From the IMG/VR virus record IMGVR_UViG_3300020473_000023, positions 42,285 through 106,284 of that record: DNA of 64,000 bases. One strand, 5' to 3'. Within the stretch, counting starts at the first letter, position 1; every line of letters begins with the position of its first letter. The notes under the pieces are model-generated. The model saw only the letters and a program-made list of their open reading frames with translations. It had not been told where the DNA came from and ran no database searches. The stretch comes from a virus. Of this stretch, positions 12,286 through 29,482 are shown piece after piece. A program made the position numbers and the translations under genes.

Positions 12286-12573
12286 CTACTCCGAAGACAG
12301 AGGGTTGTCTGTCTCAATCACACTAAATATTGACTCTGCATCAGTGTCAGAAAGCCTTCCAATTGCCTTATCTCTCTTCTTTTTTTGAATTTCTTCAAGT
12401 ATGTCAATCATATCTGGATTTGCCACTGCAATTCTTTGAACTATCTCTTCAAGAACCTCTTGCATTGAAAGGCTATGCTTAAAGCATGCAATTCTAAAAT
12501 GCGAATGGGTCTCTCGCAACAGGGAAAAGTGAACTGACTTCTTTGTTTCAAAATCAATAAGCTTATCATTCAT
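12286..12573 (-). CDS. hypothetical protein, possible ribbon-helix-helix DNA-binding protein
   Basis: KSVHFSL strand followed by two helices (LSMQEVLEEIV). Confidence 0.55.
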   Translation of the reverse strand: MNDKLIDFETKKSVHFSLLRETHSHFRIACFKHSLSMQEVLEEIVQRIAVANPDMIDILEEIQKKKRDKAIGRLSDTDAESIFSVIETDNPLSSE

Positions 12574-12582
12574 CTCAAGTCA

Positions 12583-14242: not shown

Positions 14243-14662
14243 TTAATTATCATCCTTAGAGATAAACTTAACTACTTCTATCTCAGCATCTCTTAAGATT
14301 TCTAAAGAAGTTAAGTCCCTATAGTCTTCTGAATATACCACAGTAGAGATTCCTGAGTTGACAATTGCTTTTGCGCACATCCTGCACGGGCTTAGGGTGA
14401 CATACATAATCTTCTTTTTAGGGTTGTTATAATCCATCTTAAGAAGGGCGTTAATTTCAGCATGAATCATTCCCGACTCTCCTGGAGAAGATGACTCTAC
14501 TTCATTCGGGCCCCCCATATAGTTTCCATTATATCCGACAGCAAGAACTTGAGTATTATCATCTGTCACAACAACAGCCCCCACTTGGTGCCTTTGATCA
14601 ACCGATCTTCTTGCTATTGAATAGGAAAAATCCATCCATATCTGGTGCCACGTAGGTCTCAT
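14243..14662 (-). CDS. dCMP deaminase (ComEB-like)
   Basis: RPTW, VGAVVV, GYNG, HAEINA, SPCRMC; start re-called at MRPTW (14662). Confidence 0.92.
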   Translation of the reverse strand: MRPTWHQIWMDFSYSIARRSVDQRHQVGAVVVTDDNTQVLAVGYNGNYMGGPNEVESSSPGESGMIHAEINALLKMDYNNPKKKIMYVTLSPCRMCAKAIVNSGISTVVYSEDYRDLTSLEILRDAEIEVVKFISKDDN

Positions 14663-14675
14663 TTGTCTTCCCTCT

Positions 14676-15350
14676 CTACAGTAAGTTAGAATAAATTGTA
14701 GAATAGCTTTTATTGTATTTAAATTTTTCAAAATCCTTTTCATAAAATTTTAAAAATTCACTGAGCACATTTGGAAATCTTTCCCACGGAACTCTAATAT
14801 CTGGAACGTCCTTAAGCGACACGTTCTCCCGAGGGAGAGAAGTTGATGGAGATATTATTTTTCTTCTCTGCAACTCAGACAAAAGTTCAGGTATTTGATC
14901 TTCTATCCTATACCAGTCTGTTCCTTCTCCGATAAATTCAAATTGGCTTCTAAAGTGATTATCATCTACCCCGGGTCCATTTTTAGGAATTACATTTTTA
15001 AAAAGATCTGTTACCCAGTCAATAAATCCCAGTGGGTGGGGATATTCAATTCCAAACTCTTTTGCCTGCTGCTTTGCTTTAGAAAATATTCTATCGTATG
15101 GGTTTCTAACAATAGTAAATTCATACTCCCACGTTCTATCCCAAAGATCCCTTAGGGCTCTATGCTGATGCTTGGACCGCTTATTGTCAGATACTTGAAT
15201 CTCTCTAGACATTCTAGTCGGAAGAGGTCTATCTTTTTCAGCAATCTTCCACCCCTGGCTTTCGATCATCTTTCTAACAGAGCTTCCGCCAGCCTTTGGA
15301 ATGTGAACAAATAAAATTCTTCTTCCTTCACGTTCGTATATTGATGACAT
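14676..15350 (-). CDS. sulfotransferase family 2 protein
   Basis: FVHIPKAGGSS 5'-PSB loop, VRNPYDR 3'-PB motif, HFRSQ. Confidence 0.85.
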   Translation of the reverse strand: MSSIYEREGRRILFVHIPKAGGSSVRKMIESQGWKIAEKDRPLPTRMSREIQVSDNKRSKHQHRALRDLWDRTWEYEFTIVRNPYDRIFSKAKQQAKEFGIEYPHPLGFIDWVTDLFKNVIPKNGPGVDDNHFRSQFEFIGEGTDWYRIEDQIPELLSELQRRKIISPSTSLPRENVSLKDVPDIRVPWERFPNVLSEFLKFYEKDFEKFKYNKSYSTIYSNLL

Positions 15351-16339
15351 TATTCCTCATCTTTAGATGACTCAATTTTATCTAAGATCTCTTCAACCTT
15401 GGCAACTGCCTCCTTGTCGCTCTCTTCTGCTAGAGCACTCTGAATTTTCTTAAGCTCTTCGCGAGCAGCTGAGGTGTCAACAGGCTCCTCTTCGACAGGC
15501 TCCTCTTCGGGGTCAAAGATATCATCAACACAAAGCTCGCCGCTTATCTGAAATCCTGCAGCTTTTTTGTGACCACCGCCTCCAAAACTCTTTGCAATCT
15601 CAGAAACATCAACTGCATCATGAAAAGCCCTTAGGCTTACCTTGTTGATTCTATCCTCATGATCATAATACCATATAACAGCAAAGTCGCAATCAGGTGC
15701 AAGCCTAGCTCCGATCTCAGACATCCAGTGAGAAGAATTAACTACTATGACCTTCATTCCCTTATATTTTCTTACAACTGCCTTTTCACAAACCTTTTTA
15801 ATGACTGTTTTACTATAAGCAAGTATGTAAGATCCACGCTTAACAGCATCATCAAACACAGAATCATCTTCAAACTTCTCAAACTCTTCAAACTCGAATG
15901 GCACCATGTCAAATGCAGCACTAAACTCTTTTGAATAATCAAGCTCCCACTTCCAAAGATCTCGATCCTGAATATACTTGATAAACTTCGGCGGCTCTTT
16001 TCCTGGGTGAAACCACTCCCATGCAAGCATTGCTCCGGATTTTGTCATATCAAAATGTGTGTTCGATATATCGTGAAGCTCTACCATCGCAGACTTATGG
16101 TGATCAATGACCAGCAATGAGTTTGCTTCATCAATCATCTTCTTTGTCGTGGCATTGTCAAAGGAAAAATCTAAGATTACCACATTTTTTCCTTTGACAT
16201 CTGGTGGAGGTGTGCCATGTTTGCAAGCGTAGTATTCTGTTCTATTTCCTAAAAACTTCCAGGCTGAATAAGCCGCACCGAATCCGTCAGTACAGTTTGC
16301 ATGGTAAATTACACAATTCACACTGCTTGGTTCAATCAT
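15350..16339 (-). CDS. DHH/DHHA1 phosphoesterase (NrnB-like)
   Basis: YHANCTDG, LDFS, IDHH, SLR, GGGGHKKAAG; acidic tail. Confidence 0.9.
   Translation of the reverse strand: MIEPSSVNCVIYHANCTDGFGAAYSAWKFLGNRTEYYACKHGTPPPDVKGKNVVILDFSFDNATTKKMIDEANSLLVIDHHKSAMVELHDISNTHFDMTKSGAMLAWEWFHPGKEPPKFIKYIQDRDLWKWELDYSKEFSAAFDMVPFEFEEFEKFEDDSVFDDAVKRGSYILAYSKTVIKKVCEKAVVRKYKGMKVIVVNSSHWMSEIGARLAPDCDFAVIWYYDHEDRINKVSLRAFHDAVDVSEIAKSFGGGGHKKAAGFQISGELCVDDIFDPEEEPVEEEPVDTSAAREELKKIQSALAEESDKEAVAKVEEILDKIESSKDEE
15480..15509. repeat. 15-bp tandem duplication within the DHH gene tail
   Basis: acaggctcctcttcg x2, encoding EEEPV twice. Confidence 0.9.
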
Positions 16340-16374
16340 TTTTTACCCACCTGAAACAATAAGTTCATCAATAT

Positions 16375-16932
16375 CTATTTTGACTGATTCATAAAACTGT
16401 GATGAAACCAGGATCTTGGCTCATAGAGCTCAGAGCCACCGACAGTAATTTCATCAAGACCAGAAAGCTTTCTGTGTGTATAGTACGCATCCTGCCCGGA
16501 AATTGGACACACAGCGGGACAAACCTCAATCTTTGTTGCCCATGGCATCATGTCTCTAATTTCCTCAAAAACATTTCCACTAGCAGAAAGCTGAAGTGAA
16601 GATACTACAACAGTCTTTCCCTCTCTAAAGAGGGAGAGAAGTGCTGATGCAGAACCATCTATCATAAAAGCCTCATCTACGGCAATAACATGAATATTTT
16701 CTTTATCCTGTAGATATTTTAATATATCTTCACCAGTTTTTACACATGTGGCTGAAATCTTTCCCCCTGAATGTGTACAGATCTCACCTAAAGAATACCT
16801 GTCGTCCATTGCAGGCTTAAAGCAGACAATATTTCTATTTTGATATCTAAATCGATCTAGAGTTGCCATAAGCCTGGTCGTCTTAGATCCAAACATGGGA
16901 CCAGTAAAAATTATAAATTCAGGAATTCTCAA
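16375..16932 (-). CDS. tdk: thymidine kinase
   Basis: GPMFGSKTT P-loop, FKPAMDDRY, VDEA, VGGSELYEP. Confidence 0.9.
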   Translation of the reverse strand: MRIPEFIIFTGPMFGSKTTRLMATLDRFRYQNRNIVCFKPAMDDRYSLGEICTHSGGKISATCVKTGEDILKYLQDKENIHVIAVDEAFMIDGSASALLSLFREGKTVVVSSLQLSASGNVFEEIRDMMPWATKIEVCPAVCPISGQDAYYTHRKLSGLDEITVGGSELYEPRSWFHHSFMNQSK

Positions 16933-17350
16933 CTATAACCTCCGCAAGGTGTGCAAATGACTTATCCTCTCTTCCATAGTCGTCAATAATTCTAATTACA
17001 CTATGATTTCTAGTGTCCCCTATTTCAAATATTATTGAATCTACTTCGGCTGTTATTCTATATGGACACTCAGATTGAATATTTAAGCACTCACCTTGAG
17101 ACAGCGTCATCTTTCTCATTGGATGATTTGAAGGGTCTTCAAAAAATCCCTGATCTGCACAGTCAACAGAAACTCTCCCTTGAACGACAAATAAAGTTTC
17201 TGTCTTAACTTTATTCATTTTAAAACTTAGCCTCTTTCCAGCTTCAATGGTTAGAATTTTTCCATAAGCATTTGGTGCTGTCCATGAAACCTCTGTGCCC
17301 CACGGCTTTACGTGATTGTTGGAGACACCTCCCCATATTGCCTTACTCAT
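16919..17350 (-). CDS. cupin protein (type II mannose-6-phosphate isomerase C-terminal-like)
   Basis: KPWG...KRLS...KTETLFVVQG...IRIIDDYGR; start re-called at MSKAIW. Confidence 0.7.
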   Translation of the reverse strand: MSKAIWGGVSNNHVKPWGTEVSWTAPNAYGKILTIEAGKRLSFKMNKVKTETLFVVQGRVSVDCADQGFFEDPSNHPMRKMTLSQGECLNIQSECPYRITAEVDSIIFEIGDTRNHSVIRIIDDYGREDKSFAHLAEVIVENS

Positions 17351-18347
17351 CTTTAAGACCCCACCACTCAACTGTTCTTTCTAGTCCCTCCCAAATTCTC
17401 ACAACAGGCTCATACCCAAAATCTTCTCTAGCATTTGTAATATCTGCCTGAGTGTGCATAACGTCACCCGGCCTCCACGGTGCGTCAGTCACCTCTATAT
17501 TAGGAAATTTATCTCTGAAGAAATCTAAGATTTGATTGTTTGTTGTTCTATCTCCGCAGGCAATATTATAATACTGTCCCTCAAAATCATCATCTCGACT
17601 TGCTACTAAAATATTAGCCTGAACAACGTTGTCAATATAGCAAAGGTCCCTTGACTGTGTTCCATCTCCATCACTCCTTAGGGGAAGGCCTCTAAGGACA
17701 GCATTGCACCATGCAGAAACAGCTGTTGAATACGGAGAATCTCCATACTGCCCTGGGCCAAATACATTAAAATATCTTAGGCACACAATATCAATATTAT
17801 AAAGATTGCAAAAAACATTTGCGAGGTCTTCAATTGAAGATTTCTGCCAAGCATATGGAGATTTGGGGTCCTTTGGGTGATCTTCTGAAGTAGGCATTAA
17901 ATCTGCCCCTCCGTAAACAGAAGAGGATGATGCCCAGACAATTCTTCTAACGTTTCCAACACATGCTTCAAATAACCTGACAGTAGATCCAATATTTGTA
18001 TTTGTTGTTATAGAGGGATTTTCAACAGAAAACAAGACTCTGGGTATTGCTGCCTGATGAAATACAACATCATATTTTCTCTGAGATATTTGATAAATTA
18101 TTCCATCGGCAGCGAAGTCATCCTGAATAACCACAACAGTTTCCTGACCCCTTCCTGACTGTTTGTTAAATTCCGGGAGAAACTCTGAACTCGGAATTAC
18201 TCTAAAGCTTAGCCCTTCTAAAAGCTCTAGATGGCCGTTTGACATATCGTCTACGATGTCAACTGTCCAGCCTTGACTGACAAGCTCTTTTGTTAGATTT
18301 GATCCGATGAATCCACATCCGCCTGTAACTAGTGCTCTTTTTTCCAT
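17343..18347 (-). CDS. NAD-dependent nucleotide-sugar epimerase/dehydratase
   Basis: TGGCGFIG, SSSSVYG, YAWQK (YxxxK), RYFNVFGP, GDGTQSRD; start MEKRAL after GAGG. Confidence 0.92.
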   Translation of the reverse strand: MEKRALVTGGCGFIGSNLTKELVSQGWTVDIVDDMSNGHLELLEGLSFRVIPSSEFLPEFNKQSGRGQETVVVIQDDFAADGIIYQISQRKYDVVFHQAAIPRVLFSVENPSITTNTNIGSTVRLFEACVGNVRRIVWASSSSVYGGADLMPTSEDHPKDPKSPYAWQKSSIEDLANVFCNLYNIDIVCLRYFNVFGPGQYGDSPYSTAVSAWCNAVLRGLPLRSDGDGTQSRDLCYIDNVVQANILVASRDDDFEGQYYNIACGDRTTNNQILDFFRDKFPNIEVTDAPWRPGDVMHTQADITNAREDFGYEPVVRIWEGLERTVEWWGLKDE

Positions 18348-18366
18348 ATTTCTACCTCGGTATATC

Positions 18367-19275
18367 TTACTCAAGAATGTGTGCAGAGTTTAAAGTGAAA
18401 TGCATTCTACAAAAATTACATCCTTCACCAAGCAGGCTCCAGCATTCTGAAGCTATAAAGTATAGAAACTTTAAATCGTGCTGAAACTTGTTATTAATAT
18501 CTGTTGATCTACAGACAAATCTGATATCTAGGACTCCGCCTCTGTTGAGAATGTGAATCATTGAGATGCAGGTATCTTCTGTGAACACGTACCTTCTAGA
18601 GCCTATACCTTCTTTTCTTTCATACGGATTATTTCCTGCTTGCTCATCATCTATTTTATTCATCAGTGTGTTGTAGATGTGACAATAGTATTCTTTCTCT
18701 GACTCCTCACTCATAGAAGATATATCTGACTCTTTAAATTCACCATCGTCATGAAGTGTAAAGGTTAGTTGATTGCACTCCTTGTTTGGAAAGTGTTTGA
18801 CAAAATTCCCAATCTGGCCGTAGATCTCTTTTAAGCTTAGATTCTTTTCAATGCAATTATGATAGTCAACAACCATGCTTGCAAGACGCCCTGATGCTCC
18901 ATTCATAATGCCATAGACGTTTGAGAGTGCAGGCCATCTGGCAAACTCTTTGTAAAAGTAATCATACGAATCCTTAAGAGATTCAATTGTGTGAATTTCA
19001 TCTCCCCGGTGATTGTACCTTTCTCTAAGGACCTCAAATGTAGGCATCATAAAAACATATCTGTTGTTAAGATTGCTAACCTCTTCATAGAATTCTCTAG
19101 TTGCTTGATCGACATCTCTGTTATACATCTTAGAAAATACCATTCTTGATAGCTTCGACCTATCCATTAGATGCCATCGGTAGTCAGTCTTTTTGTGAAT
19201 GTCACTAATAAGTGTTGTCTTTCCAGAAAGGTCTGGCCCTTCAATGGAGATCATATTGATTGGAAAAGTTAGCAT
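18367..19275 (-). CDS. dNMP (thymidylate-type) kinase fused to a minimal thymidylate-synthase/dCMP-hydroxymethylase-like domain
   Basis: N-term EGPDLSGKTT and DR; C-term SRR, C-x19-RSTD-x7-D, SAHI. Confidence 0.75.
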   Translation of the reverse strand: MLTFPINMISIEGPDLSGKTTLISDIHKKTDYRWHLMDRSKLSRMVFSKMYNRDVDQATREFYEEVSNLNNRYVFMMPTFEVLRERYNHRGDEIHTIESLKDSYDYFYKEFARWPALSNVYGIMNGASGRLASMVVDYHNCIEKNLSLKEIYGQIGNFVKHFPNKECNQLTFTLHDDGEFKESDISSMSEESEKEYYCHIYNTLMNKIDDEQAGNNPYERKEGIGSRRYVFTEDTCISMIHILNRGGVLDIRFVCRSTDINNKFQHDLKFLYFIASECWSLLGEGCNFCRMHFTLNSAHILE

Positions 19276-19284
19276 TATCCTACC

Positions 19285-22200
19285 TCACACATTAATCTTT
19301 CTCATCTTGTAGGAAGATGTACTACATCCCCAAGATTCAGTTGATGCAACTTCAGCAATCCATATTGTATATGGATCAGGAACTTCTTTAAACTTTGTCC
19401 AGACTCTAAGCCAGCAGCTTTCAGAATTGTTATCGCAAACTCTCATTCTATAGAATATCTTTCCATTCTTGGTCTTCTTCTCAATAATTTCCTGAATGCA
19501 GAACCAGACTACATCTTTTGTCTTTCCAGAGAGTGCAGTAATCGGCTTAAGTTCAGACTTCTTAATCTTTTCCATTATCTTGGGAGGAAAGACAAGCGTC
19601 TCGTCAGCTCCTGACATTAAGTCAACACTGAACCCGATCTTTAGGGTTCGAGACCAGTCAGCAGACCCGTAGTTGTCAACAATAAGCTTAGGAACAAATT
19701 CCTCAACAGTTGCCTGTGTCTTGAGGAGGCGCTTATGTGCAGTCTTTGTCATCCCATACCTACCTTTCTTCAATTGATCATAGTTTCCAACAATTATATC
19801 ATGAAGCTGTCTGTGATTTTGAATTTCTCCTTGGGATATTTCTGCTATACTTCCAAACGCCTCTACCTTACAAAGAGAATCAAAGGCTGTTTTATTTAGC
19901 TTGGAAGGCTTCCACTTCCCATCTTCTGTAAATAAAATATCATCAAGGGTGCTATATGGTCTATTTTCCATAATCTCAGTAACAGCAGATCCTCCAACAC
20001 CTTTGATAGCAGTAAGCGGTGGTACGAACCCTTGCCTTTCTTCACTATACACCCAGACGTCTGAAGAAGCATTGATATCGGGTTGAAGGATTTTATATCC
20101 TAGTGACTTGATCTCTGCTATGATCTTTGCAAACTTTGGAGATCCGTTCCACGTCTGAAGGCATGTAGCGAGCCATTCCTTTTCATGGTATGTGTGTAAC
20201 CATGCAGAATAATATGAATCAACAGCGTAGGCGACCGCATGTGACTTATTGAAGCCATAGGCAGAGAACGCCTCAATTGTCTCGTAGAGCTTGGTTGCTT
20301 TGTCTTCTGCCATGCCAGATAGTTTAACGGCACCTCCAATAAACTTCTCTCTAAGGTCAGCCCTCTCTTTTGCCTTTTTGTCATTCATGTCAAGAGACTT
20401 CTTGACAAGAGTCTTTCTCATCTTATCTGAAGCGCCTTTGTCGAATCCGCACAGCTTTTGTGCAATAAGCATGAACTGCTCCTGAAAGACGACGAATCCA
20501 CGGCTTTCGCTTAGGAGATCTTCAAGGACAGGGTGGTCGTATGTAATGCTTTCAATGTTTTCACCGGCCCGAACATATTTCCTATGAACGTTAGCTGCAA
20601 GGGGTCCTGGTCGATAGATTGCTGTAATGGTTGCAAGGTCTTCAATAGATCTAGGCTTGGCAGCCACACAGAAGTTTCTAGCACCTGTATTTGTGAACTG
20701 AAATACTTGGACGAATCTCCCATCGTGATAAACGTATTCCCAAACCTTTTGATCATCCATCTTGTGAAATCTACTATTTAGATTTGCATCAAAGAATTCA
20801 TTAATATCGTCAAACGTAGGATTTTCTACGCCTTGGTTTCTTAGGATGAGTCTGATAGAATCTTCCACCATTTTAAGAGTTGCTAGCCCAAGAAAGTCAA
20901 ATTTAAGAAATCCATTCTCTTCAAGGTGCCTCCAGTTCATTCCTTCTGACCACGGTGTTTGAAGCTCACCCCTAACTTTAATGACAGGCATACTGCTCTC
21001 AAGATCTGGGCAGACTAATACACCGCCAGCATGGCGACCGATCGATCTAGGCTCCATAAAGAGAGATTGAACGTGCTCTGCAATCTTAGGGTTATCGTTC
21101 ATAAATTCCCGATAGGGTTCGCTGTATTTCATGCAGTCCTCATGAGAAAGAACATATGTTGACTTTTCCTCATGATCACCCATGGCTCTTGGCATTACCT
21201 CTCTTTCCAGCGGACCTGTTAGAGCGTTTATCTTATCAAAAGGAATTCCATAAAACTTAGAAACGTCCTTAACAAGTGACCTTAACTTTAAAGTGTTAAA
21301 GTTGGAGACAGGTATGACAGAGTCTTCGCCAAAGAGCTCTCGAGAGACATCGATGAGTACATCTCTATCACCTACGTCAGAATCAATATCAGGCCAAGAA
21401 GCCTTGTGAATGCCAAGAAATCTCTCGAACAGAAGCCCATATTGAATAGGGTCAATGTGGGTAATCCCAAGGACATAGTTTACTAAGCTTCCGCCACCAG
21501 AACCTCGACCCGGACCGAGTAGAGTTCTATGCTGAGACTTCTCAAACACCTTAGTTAGAGTCAAGAAGTAATTTTCAAAGCCTAGCTGCTTAATAACAGA
21601 CATTTCCTCCCTAATCCGATTGACGTACTCGAGATTGTCATGAAGCCCTTCTTTGATCATTCCCTGCTTTACCTGTTCAACAAGCTGAGTAAACGCAGGC
21701 TTCTCAGGTGTTCCGAAGTTTGGAAGCTTTGCTGATCCGTCAAACCAGACTTCTTCGCAGAGGTCCCAGGCAATTCCATGAGATCTCTCAATTGCTTCTC
21801 GAACAGCTGTCTCACTTCCCTTATAGAAATCATATTTATCATAGCTCTTTCCAAATTCATCCCACATCTGCTGTGCATTCTTAGGATAGAGCTCACACTT
21901 TAAATCCTCCTTCTGGGGAAGTTTAGGCATTTCATCGCCTCTTGCACCCATTCTTCCAAGCATCTTATACATCTCTCTTGCCTCCCACATGTCTGGATTG
22001 CAATAGTGAGAATCAGCTGTGGCAAGAAGTGGGACTCCTGTCTTTTCAGAAAGCTTGATCAAGCACCTATTGGCAAGGTTTTGTGCAACAAGATCATTAA
22101 ACTGTATTTCAAGAAAAAAGTTTTCTTCGCCTACGGCATCTACAAATCTGTCTGTCATATTCTCAAGCTTTCTCATGATCTGATTAAGGACAACAGGATC

Positions 22201-22869
22201 GTCTACAAGATCGGGTGTCAGCTCATCAAACCTCTTTCCTTCAAAGTGCTGAAAGATATGGCCCGAAGGACGCCCACCAACACACGCTGTGGACACAGCA
22301 AGCCCTTCAGAGTGTTCCTTAAGCATCTTGTAGTCAATACGGGGAAACCTATAGAACCCCTCCTTGTATGATCTCTTGACCAATCTAAAGAGGTTCTGCA
22401 ACCCTTTGTAATTCTTAGCGAGAACTACAAGATGGTACCGCTTTTTCCAGGAGGGATAGGTTCCCCTCTCTGCCTTGGATTCATCTTCGTTTTCAATAAC
22501 CAAGCCATCGTTCTCATCCCCCTCAGAAACCTCACTCTTTGACTTCTTCTGAAGTTCTTTCTCAAGCCTGACCTGCTCTCTATATTGATTATAGTCTGTT
22601 TGCCATTCGTCTAAGTCATCTACAAAGTAGCACTCACAGCCATAGATGTGTCGATATCCCACCCCTTTGTTCTTTAGCTTTTTAGCATAGTTGTGAGCAT
22701 GAGCAGCAGAGTTCATGTGCCCATGATTTGTTAATGCAAAAGCATCCATTCCATTTTCAAGAACAAAGTCAATATGCTCGTTAGGGTATCCAAGGCCATC
22801 ATATACAGAGCTTCCATCGTGAGCATGAAGACCTACAAATCTTTTAGGTATGGTAAAATTATTAAACAC
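19285..22869 (-). CDS. dnaE: DNA polymerase III alpha subunit (family C)
   Basis: PHP domain (LHAH, GCE, ADSH), GRGSGGGSL, LFERFL, PDIDSD, KFDFLGL, YGFNKSHA. Confidence 0.97.
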   Translation of the reverse strand: MFNNFTIPKRFVGLHAHDGSSVYDGLGYPNEHIDFVLENGMDAFALTNHGHMNSAAHAHNYAKKLKNKGVGYRHIYGCECYFVDDLDEWQTDYNQYREQVRLEKELQKKSKSEVSEGDENDGLVIENEDESKAERGTYPSWKKRYHLVVLAKNYKGLQNLFRLVKRSYKEGFYRFPRIDYKMLKEHSEGLAVSTACVGGRPSGHIFQHFEGKRFDELTPDLVDDPVVLNQIMRKLENMTDRFVDAVGEENFFLEIQFNDLVAQNLANRCLIKLSEKTGVPLLATADSHYCNPDMWEAREMYKMLGRMGARGDEMPKLPQKEDLKCELYPKNAQQMWDEFGKSYDKYDFYKGSETAVREAIERSHGIAWDLCEEVWFDGSAKLPNFGTPEKPAFTQLVEQVKQGMIKEGLHDNLEYVNRIREEMSVIKQLGFENYFLTLTKVFEKSQHRTLLGPGRGSGGGSLVNYVLGITHIDPIQYGLLFERFLGIHKASWPDIDSDVGDRDVLIDVSRELFGEDSVIPVSNFNTLKLRSLVKDVSKFYGIPFDKINALTGPLEREVMPRAMGDHEEKSTYVLSHEDCMKYSEPYREFMNDNPKIAEHVQSLFMEPRSIGRHAGGVLVCPDLESSMPVIKVRGELQTPWSEGMNWRHLEENGFLKFDFLGLATLKMVEDSIRLILRNQGVENPTFDDINEFFDANLNSRFHKMDDQKVWEYVYHDGRFVQVFQFTNTGARNFCVAAKPRSIEDLATITAIYRPGPLAANVHRKYVRAGENIESITYDHPVLEDLLSESRGFVVFQEQFMLIAQKLCGFDKGASDKMRKTLVKKSLDMNDKKAKERADLREKFIGGAVKLSGMAEDKATKLYETIEAFSAYGFNKSHAVAYAVDSYYSAWLHTYHEKEWLATCLQTWNGSPKFAKIIAEIKSLGYKILQPDINASSDVWVYSEERQGFVPPLTAIKGVGGSAVTEIMENRPYSTLDDILFTEDGKWKPSKLNKTAFDSLCKVEAFGSIAEISQGEIQNHRQLHDIIVGNYDQLKKGRYGMTKTAHKRLLKTQATVEEFVPKLIVDNYGSADWSRTLKIGFSVDLMSGADETLVFPPKIMEKIKKSELKPITALSGKTKDVVWFCIQEIIEKKTKNGKIFYRMRVCDNNSESCWLRVWTKFKEVPDPYTIWIAEVASTESWGCSTSSYKMRKINV

Positions 22870-22891
22870 TACTACTTGCCTCCTATGTTTA

Positions 22892-22919
22892 ATTGTAAAT
22901 CAAATAGGGAAAATTTACA
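22892..22919 (-). promoter_or_regulatory. putative early/middle promoter for dnaE
   Basis: TGTAAA-N16-TACAAT, then AGGAGG RBS. Confidence 0.6.
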
Positions 22920-22931
22920 TGAAAATAGAGA

Positions 22932-24002
22932 TCAATCTATAAATTTTCTTCTCAGCCTGAGGGACTCTAGCTTTTCAATAAGCTCTTTCTCTTCTGGGGA
23001 AGCGTCTGTCGGGATGCTTACAGTAACATGAACATTGTGAAATCCACGAATCTGAGCATTGATATCAACAGGAAGCCCTTCATTTGAAATTTGAATAATA
23101 TCACCTGGCTGAATTCCCGGTCTAATTTCTACAGAAAGAGTCTTATCTATTCCCCCTATATTAACCTTTGACCCAAGAACAGCTTCACTATAGGATATAG
23201 ATACGTGACTATGAATATCACTACCATCCCTATAGAGCTTCTGGTGATCTTTGACTACAATCTCTAAGAAAGCATCTCCGGCAATGTCCGCTGTGGCTTC
23301 TTTGTTTCCCATGCCCGAAAGCTTAAGAACATTTCCAGAATGGATTCCACTGGGTATCGAGACATTAATTTCCTTTTTCTTTCGTACAGACCCAGAACCG
23401 TGACAGCTAGAGCATGGGTTGGATATTGTAAATCCGTATCCTGAGCAGCTTCCACAAGAAGTTGCAAATGTTACAAACCCCCCGACACTTTGCTGAACCC
23501 TTCCTGTTCCGGCGCATGTCTTGCACCTAGACCTATCTGACTTATCTAAATAGCCATGCCCTGAACACGGTTCACATAGAACTATTTGATTGATATGAAT
23601 AGTCTTACTGCAACCTGTTAGGACTTCTTCAAGGTCTATTTCAATCGTATTCTTAGTGTCTGATCCCTTTCTCTTAACATCACGCTGTCTTCTTCCACCA
23701 AAAAAGTGATCAAATCCTGAGAACATATTTTCAAAATGTCCGAATATATCTCTTGGATCGAACTGAGAAGAGAAGCTAGAAGAGACACCCTCGTGTCCAA
23801 ATCTATCATAATTTACACGCTTTTCAGGATCAGAAAGCACTGAATAAGCCTCGGCTGCTTCTTTAAATTTTAGCTCAGCATCCGGATCATCTGGATTCTT
23901 ATCAGGATGATATTTCATAGCCTGCTTTCGATAAGCTTTCTTTATATCACCCTCAGAAGAGTCTTTTTTAACTCCTAGTATTTCATAATAGTCTCTTTTC
24001 AA
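22932..24002 (-). CDS. dnaJ: chaperone DnaJ
   Basis: DYYEILGV...HPD J-domain, G/F region, four CxxCxGxG repeats, C-terminal domain. Confidence 0.97.
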
Positions 24003-24247
24003 ATATCTTTCTCGTAATAGTTTCTAGTTACAATCATTTCAGATTTCTCACCGTCTACAGAGTATTTAATCTCCATTTCCCAAGAAGGCTCTTTGACATT
24101 GTTTAAGAATCTTTCCTGAATATAGAATAGCTCGTCTCTTCGCTTAACTTTTTCTACTTCTTCTTTTGCAGACTCCCAAGAAGAGAAAATTCCAACCAAG
24201 GAAGTTGAAATATTTCTACATCGGATAAGGGCATATACTTTATTCAA
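23999..24247 (-). CDS. hypothetical protein
   Basis: fills the gap between NDT and dnaJ; probable TTG start overlapping the NDT stop. Confidence 0.55.
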
Positions 24248-24680
24248 TACTTCCATAGTAAGGCTCATGAAGAAGCATGCTGAGATCTGAGCATCGAGAA
24301 AGATAATCATCAAGCTCATCAAACGAGGTGCAGACCTTGGCCCCCGATTGTGCTAGCATTAGATTAAATGTAGCTCCTTCTGGAAGCCCTGCACAAAAAT
24401 AAACTATAGGTGTATCAGATTGAAAGGCAACGCCTGCTTCAAAAATACTTCCCATATCTTTATCGCGAGTATTGCAAATTACAAAGTCATTTCCAAGAAT
24501 GTGTTCAACATTTCCCTCAAACGTCTCTCTTTGTGTCTTAAGATCAGCTGTTGGCGGACATACAAAGAAGTCTTTTGGTGAAAAATAGTCAAATCCATTT
24601 TTTGTAAGAAGTGATTTAATAGTTTCAACCTCCTCAAAGGCAGTCGGTGTAAACCAAGAGCTTGCAATATACGCTTTCAT
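24240..24680 (-). CDS. nucleoside 2-deoxyribosyltransferase / nucleotide N-glycosidase family protein
   Basis: YIASSWF, FSP, DMGSIFEAGVA, PIVYF, NLML. Confidence 0.85.
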   Translation of the reverse strand: MKAYIASSWFTPTAFEEVETIKSLLTKNGFDYFSPKDFFVCPPTADLKTQRETFEGNVEHILGNDFVICNTRDKDMGSIFEAGVAFQSDTPIVYFCAGLPEGATFNLMLAQSGAKVCTSFDELDDYLSRCSDLSMLLHEPYYGSIE

Positions 24681-24690
24681 TAACTTTCTC

Positions 24691-25680
24691 CTATTTGTTA
24701 TTGTTCATATAGTTTGCGTATTCATCTTTCATTTCTTGAATTTCTTCAAGAGTTGAAGTCCAAATTTTCTCAAAAATAGTTGGACCGTCATTAGGAACTG
24801 TTCCCTTAATATCTTCTCGACGAGATTGATAAATTGAATCATCAGGGTGATATTCAAACAGATCGTTCTTTGGCTCCGGCCAGTATAGATTTGTTCCCCT
24901 TGAGGTGAAGCCACCTTGTCCATCGGAAACTCTAAAAGTCTTTACATAGTGCATATCAGGCTTGTCAAAGTTAATTCTAGAAGAGGCTTCTGGGAGAACC
25001 TTGATTAGCTCCTTAGCCATATAGGCTGCCAGCAAATTGTCTGCAGCTGGTTGAATTTGCATATCTTGCCTCTGGGCGATGAAGCCTAAAAGATCTTTGA
25101 GATTAAGTCTCATCAGATAAAAAGATGTCATGCACTTTGGAAGAATCATTCTAGCATCCATCATAGAGACATCTTTTGAATCTGTCATGTCTGCATAGAG
25201 CTGCTTTGCCTCCCTTGTTAGTGTAATCCACCTATCTAAAAATTCAGGAGAGTTTTCAACAGCCTCAGGAATAACAGCAGGATCATCACGAAGATCTCGA
25301 TCGCCGGTGCACTGGGCGGCAAAAGAACCGGCTCGGTGTCGAATAATATGCGTGACTTCCTGGAATGACAAGCCGCTTAATTTAAAAGTAAACCCAAAAC
25401 ATTCCATTGGTGTTGGTAGTGCCCTAAAGCAGAGGACGTCTTCCAGATTAGAGGACATTTCTTGCGGTGTGGCTGTTGTAGGATTTGTGTCATCAGGGTT
25501 GTCTGCCCAGGTGGCTTTTACGTACTGCCAGGCAACGTTTAATGCCTGATCCCGAGTTGGATAGTCAACAAGCTCAACCTTTAAGGCTGACAAGTTGTTA
25601 AAAAATTCTGTAGTAGGCTCCTGTCCGAACTTTAGGTCCATTGGGAGACTGATTGGCTTAAGATTATGATTGACTGGCAT
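24691..25680 (-). CDS. thyX: flavin-dependent thymidylate synthase-like protein (Ser-to-Cys variant)
   Basis: TPME...F, RHRAGSFAAQC, DARMILP, NLKDLLGFIAQR. Confidence 0.75.
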   Translation of the reverse strand: MPVNHNLKPISLPMDLKFGQEPTTEFFNNLSALKVELVDYPTRDQALNVAWQYVKATWADNPDDTNPTTATPQEMSSNLEDVLCFRALPTPMECFGFTFKLSGLSFQEVTHIIRHRAGSFAAQCTGDRDLRDDPAVIPEAVENSPEFLDRWITLTREAKQLYADMTDSKDVSMMDARMILPKCMTSFYLMRLNLKDLLGFIAQRQDMQIQPAADNLLAAYMAKELIKVLPEASSRINFDKPDMHYVKTFRVSDGQGGFTSRGTNLYWPEPKNDLFEYHPDDSIYQSRREDIKGTVPNDGPTIFEKIWTSTLEEIQEMKDEYANYMNNNK

Positions 25681-25736
25681 TTATCTTCCTTTCATATTGA
25701 TTGTTACACGAAGGTGACACTTTGTTCACCTCTTTT

Positions 25737-26690
25737 TCACATAAAATTATTCTTCATTAAAAGAGCGTCGATGAGAACTCTTAGCTGGCTCGGGCCATAA
25801 TACATCTTGACGCCTTCAACACTTTCAAGCTCTGAATTGTATGAAGTAACGGGAGAAAGAGTTGAAACTCCGTGCTTGGCATATTCAGCGCTATGTTTGG
25901 CAGAATCATCAATAGCACATACAATTTTTCCAGAGTCAAAATATTCAGACTTAGTTAGCCATCTATACTTCTCAGCGCTAAAATCAACTCTGTGAAATTT
26001 TAACCCTGATTTGCTTAGCCACCTGTATGTATCATACTTACATTGAAGAACATCTCCTGGCCGAGCTGTTAAGAGTTGAATCCAGCATCCGCTATCATAA
26101 AAGTGATTTATAGTCTGTACGACACCTGTATCTACTGTGAGAGTTCTAAGCTTTCTTTCTGCCAAAAAGTCATCAAATACTTCTTCAGGATTTAGTCCGG
26201 CATCTCTAACTTCTGATGTAGTATAATACTCAGTAGACTCTCTGTCGACTAAAACGCCTCTCTCGGATTCAAGCCAGTCAATAAAGTTAGATCTAAAATG
26301 TGCAATCACATCATCAATATCAAATACAAGGACAGGCTGGCCCTCCCAGGCCTGAGATTCGATATGATATCTCATATGAAGAAACATGTCCTTATCTTCA
26401 AATGCGTCAGATAGAGATCCTGGGTCTATGTTCCAAAGATTTAAAATTGCAAGAAGATATCTAAAAACATCAACTGATTCGTATAGAATCTTTGAAGGAT
26501 CAGCAACGCTCCTAAGTCGTCTATGATCTTTAAAGTTAACTGCGCTTATTAGTTCAGAAACTTCGGCATGAAGAGCCAGGGCAAAAGATTTTGTCATCTC
26601 TTCTCTTTCACTATCTGACATATTTTCAGGTTTAAAAAAAAGATCAGAAAATTTATTTTGACGATTAAAGAAATAGTCTAAGTCTCTCAT
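25737..26690 (-). CDS. dimeric dUTPase/MazG-like domain fused to HAD 5'(3')-nucleotidase
   Basis: EVSEL...FKDH...YESVDVFRY N-term; FDIDDV, LTAR, K, IDD HAD motifs C-term. Confidence 0.8.
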   Translation of the reverse strand: MRDLDYFFNRQNKFSDLFFKPENMSDSEREEMTKSFALALHAEVSELISAVNFKDHRRLRSVADPSKILYESVDVFRYLLAILNLWNIDPGSLSDAFEDKDMFLHMRYHIESQAWEGQPVLVFDIDDVIAHFRSNFIDWLESERGVLVDRESTEYYTTSEVRDAGLNPEEVFDDFLAERKLRTLTVDTGVVQTINHFYDSGCWIQLLTARPGDVLQCKYDTYRWLSKSGLKFHRVDFSAEKYRWLTKSEYFDSGKIVCAIDDSAKHSAEYAKHGVSTLSPVTSYNSELESVEGVKMYYGPSQLRVLIDALLMKNNFM

Positions 26691-26706
26691 ATTTCCTCCT
26701 AGTTCA

Positions 26707-26734
26707 ATTATAACTTAGAAAGAAATAAAGTACA
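26707..26734 (-). promoter_or_regulatory. putative early/middle promoter
   Basis: TGTACT-N16-TATAAT, then AGGAGG RBS. Confidence 0.65.
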
Positions 26735-26741
26735 TGAGATA

Positions 26742-27113
26742 CTAATATCCTTCTGTCAACCTTTTGTGAATTACTTCGTCCTTTCTAGTATACTCTCTAA
26801 ACAAATCATCTGAGCTAAATCCTGTCATAATGAGAAGAGAGAAAAAGTAATTAAAGGCATCAACCATCTCTTCAAGAAACTTCTCTCTATCGAACCCAGA
26901 GATCTCAGTGACTCTATGCGGTTTCCAGTTTTTAAGATGCTGAAGGGCTTCGAACATTTCTTCGACACCCCTTAGAGCGACATCCCTGCAAATCTGCTGA
27001 TCCTCTTTTTTACTTAGGTCTAGAGGGGCGGTTGGAGTTGATCCGGGAATTTTTTCACCCAAAGATCTCATAAACAGCTCCCTCAGTTCAAACATAGAAT
27101 CAAGCTTGTCCAT
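26742..27113 (-). CDS. dimeric all-alpha dUTPase/dCTPase (T4 gp56-like)
   Basis: EEMFE...WKPH...EEMVD. Confidence 0.8.
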   Translation of the reverse strand: MDKLDSMFELRELFMRSLGEKIPGSTPTAPLDLSKKEDQQICRDVALRGVEEMFEALQHLKNWKPHRVTEISGFDREKFLEEMVDAFNYFFSLLIMTGFSSDDLFREYTRKDEVIHKRLTEGY

Positions 27114-27121
27114 CTAAAATA

Positions 27122-27361
27122 TCAACTCTCAACTAGAAGAGAGTCAACTGCGAGTGCTTCCGCGTCATCAAGCATTTTCTGAACTTGACCGTCTGATATT
27201 TCCCTATATTCACTTGTTAAAACAAGCTCCTCGTCATTCTCTTCAGAGGTGGTAACCTTAATCATTCTAAGGTGATCAACTACGTCTGTTCCGCTTAGGA
27301 TGGCCATTTGCAAAAGTTTTGCTACGTGGCTGATGACTTCATTTGAAAGTGTATAATTCAT
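27122..27361 (-). CDS. hypothetical protein
   Basis: 79 aa ORF, AGGAG RBS. Confidence 0.7.
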   Translation of the reverse strand: MNYTLSNEVISHVAKLLQMAILSGTDVVDHLRMIKVTTSEENDEELVLTSEYREISDGQVQKMLDDAEALAVDSLLVES

Positions 27362-27363
27362 AT

Positions 27364-28170
27364 TTACTCCTGTACTTCTGGAACCCAGTGGGTGGTTCTT
27401 CCATCTTTTGTTTTTTCTTTTATGACAGTGTTTCCGTGCGGATCTGTCTTTTGATTATAAACCAAAAACCTTTGACTGTATTCTCCTATCTCTCCTTCAA
27501 ATCCAGAATATGTACTAATTGTAGCACCTCCTGTATCATAGGACGCCCTTATTGTCTTCTTGATGCTTTCATTTAAAAGAATGATCTCTTGATCTGAGAG
27601 AGATTTGCATGCCCTGTGGGGTGAGATTTTTGAAATGTAAAGAGATTCTGCTTTAAGATAGTTTCCAACCCCGGATATCACAGACTGATCCATTACAGCT
27701 TGGGCAATTGTCTTTTTATTGCACGCTCTAATTCTTCTTAAAAAGTCATCATTCTTAACATCGTCATTTAGCATGTCAGGCCCTAGAGAGTTTAACTTAT
27801 TAATTAAAAGATCTTTTCCCCTTACAATCTTTAAAGTTCCAAAGTTTCTAATATCGTTAAAAAAAATAGACTCTCCGCCTAGACAAATCTTGACCCTTGA
27901 GTGCTTGTTGCGGGTTCCCGACCACGTCCCAGACATTCCCAGTGTATTCCAAATAGCCCATTCATTTTCAAGAATTATAAAGATAAACTTTCCATGACAC
28001 CCAGCACCTGCAATTTTCAATGGAAGTTCATGTAAAATACTATCAAAACCGTCGGGCGGACCGTGATTCTTATATCTACCAGATAAAATCTCAATGCCAT
28101 CTAGAGATTTCCCCCCAACTCTTTCAGCAAGAGATTCAGCAATTCTTCTAACTTCTGGGCCTTCTGGAAT
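27364..28170 (-). CDS. mutM: Fpg/Nei DNA glycosylase/AP lyase, ATT start codon
   Basis: ORF extends 50 codons upstream of the track call to ATT-CCA-GAA-GGC-CCA-GAA (PEGPE); GK, LGMSG, DIRNFG, H2TH GVGNYLKAE, GRTTHW. Confidence 0.92.
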   Translation of the reverse strand: MPEGPEVRRIAESLAERVGGKSLDGIEILSGRYKNHGPPDGFDSILHELPLKIAGAGCHGKFIFIILENEWAIWNTLGMSGTWSGTRNKHSRVKICLGGESIFFNDIRNFGTLKIVRGKDLLINKLNSLGPDMLNDDVKNDDFLRRIRACNKKTIAQAVMDQSVISGVGNYLKAESLYISKISPHRACKSLSDQEIILLNESIKKTIRASYDTGGATISTYSGFEGEIGEYSQRFLVYNQKTDPHGNTVIKEKTKDGRTTHWVPEVQE

Positions 28171-28189
28171 GACACACCTCCTACTTAGT

Positions 28190-28217
28190 AGTATAATTTA
28201 TATCAGGAGCTTGTTCA
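28190..28217 (-). promoter_or_regulatory. putative promoter for fpg, overlapping a divergent plus-strand TATAAT
   Basis: TGAACA-N16-TATACT on minus; TATAAT at 28192-28197 on plus. Confidence 0.55.
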
Positions 28218-28877
28218 ATGAAAAGAATCATAGTTTCGGACACACACATAGGGACTAGATTCTATAAGTCTGAAGAGCTTTTAAAGTTTCTTAAAACAGA
28301 GGAGTTTGATCAGCTCATACTTGCAGGCGATATCATAGACTTTATTAAGATACCGACATTTACTGAGAGGTGTATGGAGATCTTGGAGGCAATTGGAAAA
28401 AACAAGGAAATCATATACGTCGTAGGAAATCATGATGAAAGCCTGGTTGGATTAATTGGTAGGCAATTTTTTAATATTAAATTTGTTAAGAAGTATGAGT
28501 TTCAAGAGGGAAAGAGAAAGTTTAGAATAGAGCACGGAGATGACTATGACAAGGGTGTAATTCACAATAGAGTCTTTATTAAGCTCCTATCAGTTATTCA
28601 AAATATGCTAGAATTTGCATTTAACTTTGACTTCACAACGTGGTGGACGTCGATTCAAATTAAAAGGCATAAGCTGAGGAGTGTTATTCATATCCTTAGA
28701 CATCACCCAAATATTGATGTATTTATAATGGGACATACACACATACCTGAAGCAGTTATCTGGATAGACGAAGATCAAAATATTAAAACATATATCAATG
28801 CAGGTGACTGGGTTACACACCAGACATATGTTACAGTAGTTAACGGCGTGTCTAGACTAAGAAAGTTTGAATCTTAG
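28218..28877 (+). CDS. calcineurin-like metallophosphoesterase (LpxH/YbbF-like)
   Basis: SDTH, GDIID, GNHD, HGD, GHTH, NAGDW; AGGAG RBS. Confidence 0.9.
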   Translation: MKRIIVSDTHIGTRFYKSEELLKFLKTEEFDQLILAGDIIDFIKIPTFTERCMEILEAIGKNKEIIYVVGNHDESLVGLIGRQFFNIKFVKKYEFQEGKRKFRIEHGDDYDKGVIHNRVFIKLLSVIQNMLEFAFNFDFTTWWTSIQIKRHKLRSVIHILRHHPNIDVFIMGHTHIPEAVIWIDEDQNIKTYINAGDWVTHQTYVTVVNGVSRLRKFES

Positions 28878-29304
28878 ATTTTTCTTCATTCTCTCTAAGC
28901 CAGCCGTGATAGTCGTTAAGGGCGTGGTCTCTTGGCTCAACATTTCTCCAGTCACCTAAGCAAAATATCCTGTAAGCATCAGAAGCATACTTTCCTATTC
29001 CATACAGAACTTCTGGACTATTTCTCCAGTCTTTTGTTAGGTAATCATTAGACATTCTAATAAGTGTCTTAGATCGTCTCTGAGACAATCCGAGCGGTTG
29101 AATCATATTCTGCAATTTTTTTTGATTTGCACATGCTGCCTTTTCAGGGGTAGGGTAAAGATCAAAAAACTTCCACATATAAGGTTCCGATTCAACCCTT
29201 TTTGTTAGATTGCAGAATATACAGGCTACAAATATCTTCCAGGGGTCTTTCCAGAGACTCTCTTGAATTAAGTTATACGGTGACTTCGGGGGCATCCATG
29301 TCAT
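28852..29304 (-). CDS. MBD4-like HhH DNA glycosylase (G:T/G:U mismatch type)
   Basis: WMPPKSPYNLIQE...DPW, GIGKYASDAYRIFC, PRDHALNDYHGWL; start MTWMPP after GGAG. Confidence 0.85.
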   Translation of the reverse strand: MTWMPPKSPYNLIQESLWKDPWKIFVACIFCNLTKRVESEPYMWKFFDLYPTPEKAACANQKKLQNMIQPLGLSQRRSKTLIRMSNDYLTKDWRNSPEVLYGIGKYASDAYRIFCLGDWRNVEPRDHALNDYHGWLRENEEKSKIQTFLV

Positions 29305-29482
29305 TGTCATCTCCAGTATTATCATACTGAAGCAGATCTCTGTTGTTCAAGCTCTTCTTTTGAACTATCCTGTCTGAAATAGCACATGCTAGTTCGAGAA
29401 ATGTGTTTCCAATAAAATTTATGACTAGAGATAGAATCACCATAAAGACAATTACGATAATTATCGACGGAATCTGTGTCAT
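29273..29482 (-). CDS. small membrane protein
   Basis: GAGGA RBS; N-terminal hydrophobic helix. Confidence 0.5.
   Translation of the reverse strand: MTQIPSIIIVIVFMVILSLVINFIGNTFLELACAISDRIVQKKSLNNRDLLQYDNTGDDNDMDAPEVTV

Follow-up and report, generated by a model that had tools for sequence, protein, structure and literature searches.

A kinase-thymidylate synthase fusion as a candidate dCMP-modifying enzyme in the replication module of uncultured marine jumbo phages

Does a phage whose DNA polymerase gene lies among pyrimidine-nucleotide enzymes and repair glycosylases replace its cytosine before replication, and which enzyme would carry out the modification? This question is raised by a window of 64,000 nucleotides, bases 42285-106284 of the 106-kb IMG/VR viral contig IMGVR_UViG_3300020473_000023. 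Within it, a reading of the letters alone (referred to as the sequence-only reading) proposed an undescribed cytosine-modification pathway around dnaE, built on a fusion of a kinase with a thymidylate synthase (TS)-fold domain. The contig is ~40% complete by CheckV, so that the whole genome, at roughly 250 kb, would be that of a jumbo phage. The window has a GC content of ~40% and carries nearly all of its genes on the minus strand, and megablast of the 15-kb stretch around dnaE returned no match to deposited phages. By open reading frame (ORF), Pfam, PHROG and NCBIfam scans, every gene named in the sequence-only reading is present, in place and on the minus strand. The explanation we favor is that this stretch holds the core genes for replication and pyrimidine nucleotides of a clade of uncultured marine jumbo phages; its signature gene, the fusion, is tightly packed between DnaE and an SDR gene. 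Two adjoining genes are at the center of the question.

18367-19275, minus strand: fusion of a deoxynucleoside monophosphate (dNMP) kinase and a minimal TS-fold domain, 302 aa (AF2 fold, VIA, profiles; no Pfam match)
19285-22869, minus strand: DnaE-type (family C) DNA polymerase, directly upstream of the fusion gene (Pfam PHP, DNA_pol3_alpha, finger and HHH_6)

The AF2 model of the fusion, built from a 49-sequence alignment, reaches a pLDDT of 94.6 and contains two folds. Residues 3-155 form a kinase fold of the deoxynucleoside kinase/thymidylate kinase (TMK) type, with VIA Z scores of 12.4-13.9 to YorR, deoxyadenosine kinase and TMK (TMK matches reach ~12). The best match is YorR of Bacillus subtilis SPbeta (PDB 3kb2/2axp; Z 13.9), which the fusion profile also hits at E 4e-7. 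Both proteins share the E-G-P-D-C-x-x-K P-loop and the D-R motif, whereas YorR, which belongs to a phage replication module of the DnaE type, is a P-loop kinase that stands alone without a TS domain. The Walker A G-K-T, the D-R motif and the lid Arg are all present in the kinase domain. Residue conservation was counted over 81 fusion-family sequences, in which G18, K19, D38, R39, R86, R90 and an R-G-D motif are invariant.

Residues ~146-302 form a TS fold, referred to here as the mini-TS. VIA aligns it over 141-146 residues to MilA (Z 11.9), AfhB (Z 11.8) and Staphylococcus aureus TS (Z 10.8), with a Foldseek probability of 1.00. The fusion profile matches T4 gp42 at E 0.15, hhalign gives 66% for the same comparison, and the protein-language-model neighbors of the fusion are clusters of TS and dCMP hydroxymethylase. 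Together with the dCMP-type residue Asp267 described below, the two folds bear out the proposal of a kinase fused to a dCMP-hydroxymethylase-like domain.

The fusion belongs to a large family. We found ~213 clusters of ~300-aa homologs in marine metagenomes, on contigs of up to 237 kb, and an exhaustive profile search yielded 438 representatives, which are mostly fusions together with some stand-alone mini-TS proteins of 165-230 aa. Word-based searches returned no longer or shorter architectures of the TS-like part, although the profile search did find these stand-alone forms. The stand-alone proteins (P0234, P0248, P0241, P0251 and others) keep the SR(R/K/Q), C-I-S, R-S-S-D, Asp and G-S-(A/L)-H motifs; they match no Pfam family (PF00303 at best E 0.029) and have no cultured host. 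In cultured phages, tblastn gave no match to the fusion or to any of three stand-alone mini-TS proteins, and we found no published description of a kinase-TS fusion. The family thus lies outside Pfam and outside cultured phages, with hundreds of members that occur only in uncultured aquatic phages.

Published work has shown that the substitution N177D in TS homologs selects dCMP, and that TS homologs need only a dNMP kinase beside them for modified cytosine to be loaded into DNA (PMC13326640; bioRxiv 2024.12.05.627091). In the mini-TS, Asp267 replaces the uracil-selecting Asn177 of ThyA in 80/80 ungapped sequences, and aligns without a gap to D179 of T4 gp42. E193, R227, C236, R256, S257, D267 and H299 are unchanged across the family; the catalytic Cys (C236), the Arg pair (R227/R228), the Arg-Ser pair (R256/S257) and H299 show no or almost no variation. 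By HMMER and hhalign, C236, R256-S257, D259 and D267 align with gp42 C148, R168-S169, D171 and D179, and the E-x-E-Y-Y motif of the fusion corresponds to gp42 E60-L-E-W-Y. The invariant Cys, Arg, Asp and Glu residues argue for a predicted catalytic role over mere binding.

The fusion recurs in a fixed gene context. We surveyed 80 independent IMG/VR loci carrying it, counting genes within 10 kb, and the same order returns throughout: (MazG, MazG-HAD, variant ThyX, NDT), DnaE, fusion, (SDR, cupin), TK, (DHH), dCMP deaminase and a superoxide dismutase (SOD)-like gene. Such clustering is far beyond chance. In the window, these genes and the two glycosylase genes are as follows.

14243-14743, minus strand: dCMP deaminase with zinc motif HAE...PCxxC (Pfam PF00383, E 2.5e-22)
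15350-16339, minus strand: DHH/DHHA1 phosphoesterase, RecJ/NrnA-like (Pfam DHHA1 3.7e-8, DHH 3e-5)
16375-16932, minus strand: thymidine kinase, TK (Pfam TK, E 6.9e-31)
16919-17371, minus strand: small cupin, probably sugar-related (PHROG 7851, 1.4e-10; weak Pfam match)
17343-18374, minus strand: extended-SDR protein resembling NDP-sugar 4-epimerases/dehydratases (Pfam Epimerase 7.9e-45; NCBIfam best match TviC-like, 5.9e-52, below cut-off)
24240-24680, minus strand: nucleoside 2-deoxyribosyltransferase (NDT) family protein (Pfam PF05014, 3.9e-11)
24691-25680, minus strand: variant ThyX-fold flavoprotein paralogue (Pfam Thy1, 64.6 bits)
25737-26690, minus strand: all-alpha NTP pyrophosphatase-like N-domain with a HAD C-domain, MazG-HAD (Pfam dUTPase_2 0.0049; PHROG 415, 7.5e-11)
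26742-27113, minus strand: gp56-family NTP pyrophosphatase, the MazG gene (dimeric dUTPase/dCTPase, MazG-like; Pfam dUTPase_2 4.8e-6; PHROG 12184, 2.7e-17)
27122-27361, minus strand: conserved 79-aa protein, orf79, traveling with the MazG gene (tblastn matches in 17/80 loci and in the sister clade described below)
27364-28170, minus strand: Fpg/Nei-family glycosylase, 268 aa from an ATT start (Pfam H2TH and Fapy domains; NCBIfam fpg 1.4e-42)
28852-29325, minus strand: MBD4-type HhH-GPD mismatch glycosylase (phmmer to MBD4 structures, E 1.6e-48)

DnaE adjoins the fusion in 80/80 loci, with the dCMP deaminase in 69/80 and TK in 67/80; these four genes are the minimal core. The co-occurrence across related phages that the sequence-only reading had suggested checking is strong for the core. 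The outer genes are less regular, with DHH in 50/80 loci, NDT in 48/80, the variant ThyX in 40/80, and the MazG and MazG-HAD genes in 27/80 each. Beyond the dCMP deaminase, whose likely start is an internal Met near 14665, the conserved block holds the SOD-like gene (13188-13919, minus strand; 58/80 loci), which encodes a 243-aa protein with an Fe/Mn superoxide dismutase C-terminal domain.

A second clade has a recognizable TS homolog at the position of the fusion. We found it by searching IMG/VR with the MBD4-like protein, a relative of which is encoded in 472 stretches. DnaE of this sister clade is 41-43% identical to that of the fusion clade (e.g. loci L126, L129, L133, L145), and the gene order is the same: MBD4-like, Fpg, orf79, MazG, DnaE, the slot in question, SDR, TK, DHH, dCMP deaminase and SOD-like. 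In contrast to the fusion clade, the slot downstream of DnaE holds a stand-alone, full-length gp42-type TS homolog without a kinase domain (274-343 aa; PF00303 at E 1e-19 to 1e-35), which follows DnaE directly in most loci and lies ~1.9 kb away in L133. It carries an invariant Cys, the Arg pair, R-S, and Asp at the N177, L143 and D169 positions, which is the signature of T4 gp42. The fusion is absent from the five sister genomes searched, and neither NDT nor the MazG-HAD block occurs in the 10-kb flanks of the sister loci.

The catalytic residues of the mini-TS that align with gp42 also map onto the sister TS homolog, which the fusion profile matches at E 6e-4; hhalign of the mini-TS against it gives 86%. 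The mini-TS thus corresponds in position, and very probably also in function, to a dCMP-modifying enzyme in ThyX-bearing phages. What we observe directly are the folds, the conserved residues and the synteny, as well as the shared position with the full-length gp42-like homolog.

The dCMP deaminase, TK and gp56-family NTPase accompany the fusion as the sequence-only reading had described, with matches to all three. It had also listed two gp56-like pyrophosphatases. The protein at 26742-27113 (123 aa) fits this description: hhalign to T4 gp56 gives 95.3% (E 2e-8), the metal motifs ExxE...EExxD are intact, and E52, E55, E81, E82 and D85 are invariant. The protein at 25737-26690 (317 aa) is indeed fused to a HAD domain, which resembles 5'(3')-deoxyribonucleotidases and has the motif D-I-D-D-V, and its profile matches PDB 3bwv at 5e-4 and 1w2y at 0.011; its N-domain is a weaker match to the dimeric dUTPases and reaches only 6% in hhalign to gp56. 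Family membership of the NDT protein likewise stands, with PF05014 and the catalytic Glu motif D-x-G-S-x-x-E-x-G. Its closest relatives are nucleoside deoxyribosyltransferases (best PDB match the N-deoxyribosyltransferase 6evs, E 1e-4), and from sequence NDT plus TK looks like deoxynucleoside salvage rather than the MilB/DNPH1-type nucleotide hydrolysis suggested earlier.

The MBD4-like glycosylase has been confirmed, and it ties the module to known cytosine-substituted phages. It matches the mammalian MBD4 glycosylase domain over 144 residues with ~49% identity (hand count on the phmmer alignment), and keeps the catalytic Asp and the G-K-Y-x-x-D-x-Y-R-I-F motif. Characterized MBD4 homologs act on T, U or 5-hydroxymethyluracil (hmU) opposite G. 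Among cultured phages, such a glycosylase occurs almost exclusively in XP12-type Bradleyvirinae, the classic 5-methylcytosine phages, where it leads a five-gene module followed by an NTP pyrophosphatase, a dCMP-modifying TS homolog, a dCMP deaminase and dihydrofolate reductase (DHFR). The window protein is 36% identical to XP12 gp61 (E 4e-23), and the window dCMP deaminase is 32% identical to XP12 gp58. We also considered whether the XP12 NTP pyrophosphatase is a relative of the local MazG protein; beyond the superfamily, no relationship was detected (hhalign 1.5%, BLASTP E 0.29).

The Fpg/Nei protein is full length only from an ATT at 28170, which has an AGGAGG Shine-Dalgarno sequence 7 nt upstream. 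From this start the N-terminus reads P-E-G-P-E-V, where the relatives have ATG-PEGPEV. The standard ORF from TTG 28020 loses the catalytic N-terminal Pro-Glu, and the NCBIfam fpg match then covers profile positions 52-276. With the ATT start, the N-terminal Pro-Glu, the H2TH domain and the C-terminal zinc-finger domain are all present (three Pfam domains). Both repair genes are thus found here as claimed, while neither is universal: Fpg occurs in 12/80 loci, and the MBD4-like gene in 4/80 loci and in 6 of 11 large relatives. In one of these relatives (G001), the MBD4-like copy contains an in-frame TGA.

On these grounds, we consider it somewhat probable that in this phage a minimal TS enzyme coupled to a kinase modifies dCMP at C5 before replication, with gp56-like pool control and XP12-type accessory repair. 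Its substrate, its catalysis, the exclusion of canonical nucleotides from the pool and a modified base in virion DNA are what we infer from sequence and models. In the proposed mechanism, Cys236 of the mini-TS would attack C6 of dCMP. Asp267 would select the base, Arg227/Arg228 and Arg256/Ser257 would hold the phosphate, Glu193 would act as general acid/base, and a substituent would be installed at C5. The fused YorR/TMK-like kinase would then convert the product to its diphosphate, for later incorporation by the phage DnaE. Meanwhile, the gp56-family NTPase(s) would return canonical dCTP and dUTP to the monophosphate, or through the HAD domain to the nucleoside, and the dCMP deaminase, a canonical ThyX encoded elsewhere, TK and NDT would supply dTTP. 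Where present, the MBD4-like and Nei-like glycosylases would remove deaminated or oxidized pyrimidines from DNA. Compared with the pathway first proposed from the sequence, the fusion, the pool enzymes and the MBD4 link are retained, the local ThyX as dTMP source and the sugar genes as a set are given up, and the repair genes become accessory.

DnaE is <30% identical to any cultured-phage polymerase. It had been argued that a family C polymerase handling C5-modified dCTP would be unusual. Published assays contradict this view, since the replicative polymerase of E. coli incorporates 5-hydroxymethyl-dCTP, and 5-hydroxy-dC and 5-methyl-dC also enter plasmid DNA (PMC13326640; bioRxiv 2024.12.05.627091). 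The family C polymerase is therefore no obstacle.

Several observations weigh against modification by the fusion. The first group concerns the enzyme itself. It gives no PF00303 match, either in the protein scan or in a six-frame scan of the contig. The mini-TS, at ~155 residues, is ~90-110 residues shorter than characterized TS homologs (~60 compared with AfhB). It lacks the Trp segment (W80/W83) between the Glu helix and the Tyr loop, so that this folate-binding element is lost, and it lacks the C-terminal tail that holds folate, as the protein ends 2-3 residues past S-A-H. Published product-predicting signatures also give mixed answers. According to Lee et al., the D169 and L143 positions predict the product of TS homologs (PMC13326640), and both equivalents vary in this family. 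The D169 equivalent is N in 38, D in 32 and E in 10 sequences, and the window protein has D259 in place of the Asn that is diagnostic for AfhB and RB69 gp48. The L143 equivalent (Cys minus 3) is E233 in the window and D in 42, S in 14, Q in 8, N in 6, G in 5 and E in 3 family members, with an equivalence that is uncertain because the mini-TS loop is 12 residues shorter. The second group concerns the neighbors. The MBD4-like gene, Fpg and the second NTPase are missing from many family members, and dCMP deaminase, TK, ThyX, MazG and NDT are common in phages with ordinary DNA too.

Comparison with known systems helps to place the candidate pathway and its product. The hydroxymethylcytosine pathway of T4 (gp42, gp1 and gp56) likewise has a TS-fold enzyme with the Cys nucleophile, the Arg pair, R-S-x-D and Asp at N177, a dNMP kinase for the product, a gp56-family NTPase, and dCMP deaminase and TK in the same phage. 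Unlike in T4, the kinase and TS are one polypeptide here, and the TS domain is ~90 residues shorter, without the Trp segment, the tail or a PF00303 match. T4 also uses Td/Frd for dTMP instead of ThyX; here the polymerase is of family C, and conserved glucosyltransferases are lacking.

The flavin-dependent 5-hydroxy-dCMP synthases (HY126 AfhB, PDB 9iqu/9iqc; RB69 gp48; DLP3 gp80) resemble the mini-TS in being shortened dCMP-type TS homologs with N177D that have abandoned folate. AfhB is the best Foldseek match and the tied best VIA match of the mini-TS, and 38/81 family members have Asn at D169. In contrast, the window protein has Asp at D169, its TS domain is ~60 residues shorter than AfhB, and it is fused to a kinase. 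The arabinose/NDP-sugar activation genes and DNA glycosyltransferases of that group are not found here, and the Nei-type glycosylase of the window module would be expected to attack 5-hydroxycytosine.

XP12 has in common with the window the MBD4-like glycosylase, the dCMP deaminase, an NTP pyrophosphatase and a TS-superfamily enzyme with Asp at N177. It differs in having a full-length folate-type TS homolog plus DHFR, a family A polymerase and a 64-kb siphovirus genome, and its NTPase is not detectably homologous past the superfamily. Pfam scans of five genomes found neither DHFR (PF00186) nor a C5 DNA methyltransferase (PF00145). Taken together, hydroxymethyl or methyl is the favored substituent by analogy, because of the gp42-type signature of the sister clade and the MBD4/XP12 link. 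A hydroxyl group is a further candidate, since AfhB shares the top rank among the structural matches and D169N is found in many sequences of the family.

How dTMP is made bears directly on the alternatives. The local ThyX-family protein is a genuine variant, as the sequence-only reading had said: its Pfam Thy1 match scores 64.6 bits, and NCBIfam thyX gives 39 bits against a cut-off of 87.9. Compared with RHRxxSxxxxSxRY, its motif reads RHRAGS-FAAQC, with RHR kept and the S-x-R-Y nucleotide segment deleted. The ARxxLP Arg and an R-x-D-x-Q-I-Q segment are conserved in alignment with the canonical ThyX of relatives, and a conserved C-terminal extension of ~100 aa follows. The AF2 model (pLDDT 81; Foldseek to ThyX and PolB at E ~1e-9) has the ThyX fold. 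We regard this variant as a putative second non-canonical pyrimidine enzyme.

Among the 11 large relatives, ThyA is absent from all. Nine have two Thy1 genes, a canonical ThyX (224-267 aa, ~160 bits) elsewhere in the genome and the 320-350-aa variant beside NDT; the remaining two have one Thy1 match each, which fits the variant, so the variant is present in 11/11. With half of its motif missing and a separate canonical ThyX kept by relatives, the local protein can no longer be assumed to be the dTMP source that it had been taken for. By analogy with the relatives, dTMP most likely comes from a canonical ThyX encoded off the incomplete contig. Since relatives keep this enzyme, dTMP supply needs no mini-TS. 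In the five sister records (26-78% complete), the variant was not detected, and canonical ThyX was detected in two.

The strongest alternative leaves the DNA canonical: the module would only raise the dTTP supply of a phage whose genome is AT-rich, with the fusion acting essentially as a thymidylate or general dNMP kinase whose TS domain merely binds and presents a pyrimidine nucleotide or makes a transient intermediate, for example 5-methyl-dCMP, which the neighboring deaminase would convert to dTMP. This reading accommodates the TMK-like P-loop E-G-x-D-x-x-G-K-T, the PHROG label 'thymidylate kinase', the TMK structural matches, the core neighbors TK and dCMP deaminase, the GC content of the window and the loss of the folate-binding elements. 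A deaminase-after-methylase route to dTTP has been proposed for XP12-type phages (bioRxiv 2024.12.05.627091). On the other hand, a second dTMP route would be redundant in relatives that already have canonical ThyX and TK, and the invariant Cys, Arg, Asp and Glu fit catalysis, not mere binding. In the sister clade, a complete enzyme of the gp42 type is retained alongside ThyX, and a T:G/hmU:G glycosylase of the MBD4 type makes most sense with C5-substituted cytosine in DNA. We consider this alternative somewhat unlikely.

A further reading goes beyond the minimal dCMP-modifying enzyme proposed above. The mini-TS could be a new catalytic branch of the TS family without direct folate use, giving a cytosine derivative, perhaps undescribed, that replaces C in the genomes of this cosmopolitan marine clade; this we regard as unlikely. 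Candidate partners in such a reaction may be the variant ThyX, which would bring in an activated one-carbon or oxygen species, or an unconjugated tetrahydropterin, which may be recycled by a pterin-4a-carbinolamine dehydratase encoded 9 kb away. The gene for the latter (8636-9064, minus strand; Pfam 5e-14) lies at most 10 kb from the fusion in 25/80 loci. Its presence is a hint that the phage uses a pterin-dependent oxygenase reaction for some purpose.

It is also conceivable, and in our estimation very unlikely, that the modification is actually made by the variant ThyX, or that it requires this protein as a second component. The variant would act as a flavin C5-methylase or hydroxymethylase on a substrate other than dUMP, or, in a two-component system, relay an activated one-carbon/flavin species to the mini-TS, which has no folate site. 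Its retained fold, RHR, ARxxLP Arg and R-x-D-x-Q-I-Q, the deleted S-x-R-Y loop and the conserved extension are compatible with this idea, as is its presence in all large fusion-clade genomes and its non-detection in the incomplete sister records, whose TS is full length. The only cultured homolog is found in the thermophilic Geobacillus phage GR1 (46% identity; OK896991.1, 19752-38699), where the variant is the sole TS-type gene and lies near NDT (39% identical to the window NDT), a nitroreductase resembling flavin reductases, a glycosyltransferase, an HD protein and DnaE. We found no published DNA-modification data for GR1. However, the co-occurrence is based on few and incomplete genomes, a relay is without precedent, and the variant could be an unrelated RNA or nucleotide methylase. 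The Arg that reads uracil O4 is also retained, which fits a uracil ring rather than cytosine.

The extended version of the sequence-only reading has the modified cytosine further decorated with a sugar, possibly sulfated, through the SDR, cupin and sulfotransferase genes. The SDR gene, whose start overlaps the stop codon of the fusion gene, follows it in 54/80 loci, and known 5-hydroxycytosine and 5-hydroxymethylcytosine phages pair TS homologs with NDP-sugar genes. These three genes are not co-conserved as a set (54, 23 and 4 of 80 loci for SDR, cupin and sulfotransferase, respectively), and the SDR gene is missing from the most divergent members of the family. The cupin is accessory, and the sulfotransferase is a rare accessory that probably lies outside the module. 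A search for glycosyltransferases, which had been recommended, found none in the 106-kb contig (six-frame scans with PF00535 and PF00534 for GT2 and GT1/GT4; Pfam on ~65 ORFs). It did find GT2/GT4 clusters of five genes in two of five large relatives (G003:C1:125500-149100 and G002:C1:203600-213100), >100 kb from the module, which are probably polysaccharide-related auxiliary genes. We therefore reject DNA glycosylation as a conserved feature, given the contig without glycosyltransferases and the distant clusters in 2/5 relatives, and the decorated base is highly improbable.

The remaining features of the stretch are listed below. Together with the DHH/DHHA1 gene, the second and third were not mentioned in the sequence-only reading.

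14676-15350, minus strand: sulfotransferase (Pfam Sulfotransfer_2 7.6e-6; PHROG 3347, 2.3e-18)
22932-24002: DnaJ
28218-28877, plus strand: metallophosphoesterase

The sulfotransferase adjoins the DHH/DHHA1 gene (14676-16339 for the two), and the DHH protein has a weak NCBIfam match to NrnA, a phosphatase of 3'-phosphoadenosine 5'-phosphate (pAp). The two could be a pair for the use of 3'-phosphoadenosine 5'-phosphosulfate (PAPS) and the removal of pAp, with the sulfotransferase present in few loci as given above. Elsewhere, window positions 1-12600 hold ~20 ORFs of 95-564 aa without a Pfam match at E 0.01. Upstream of the window, the contig carries a GMP reductase/IMPDH-family gene adjoining a PP-loop ATPase, an MT-A70 adenine methyltransferase, two Methyltransf_24 genes, GroEL, and a sigma-70 factor that is apparently short in region 4 (L001 11878-13540; L002 5738-6337, 9985-11489; L003 7882-8616, 10117-11727).

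Most of the known hypermodifications of phage DNA go back to TS homologs that modify pyrimidines before replication. To our knowledge, the characterized modifying TS homologs are all stand-alone proteins of at least 217 residues that use folate or flavin. If active, the fusion defines a minimal TS active site of ~155 residues with its own kinase, and raises the question of what replaces folate. An abundant marine jumbo-phage clade and its gp42-like sister clade would then carry non-canonical cytosine, with consequences for restriction and CRISPR evasion, virome sequencing bias and enzyme discovery. In addition, a close phage homolog of MBD4 tied to cytosine-modifying modules may help to trace where the eukaryotic enzyme came from.

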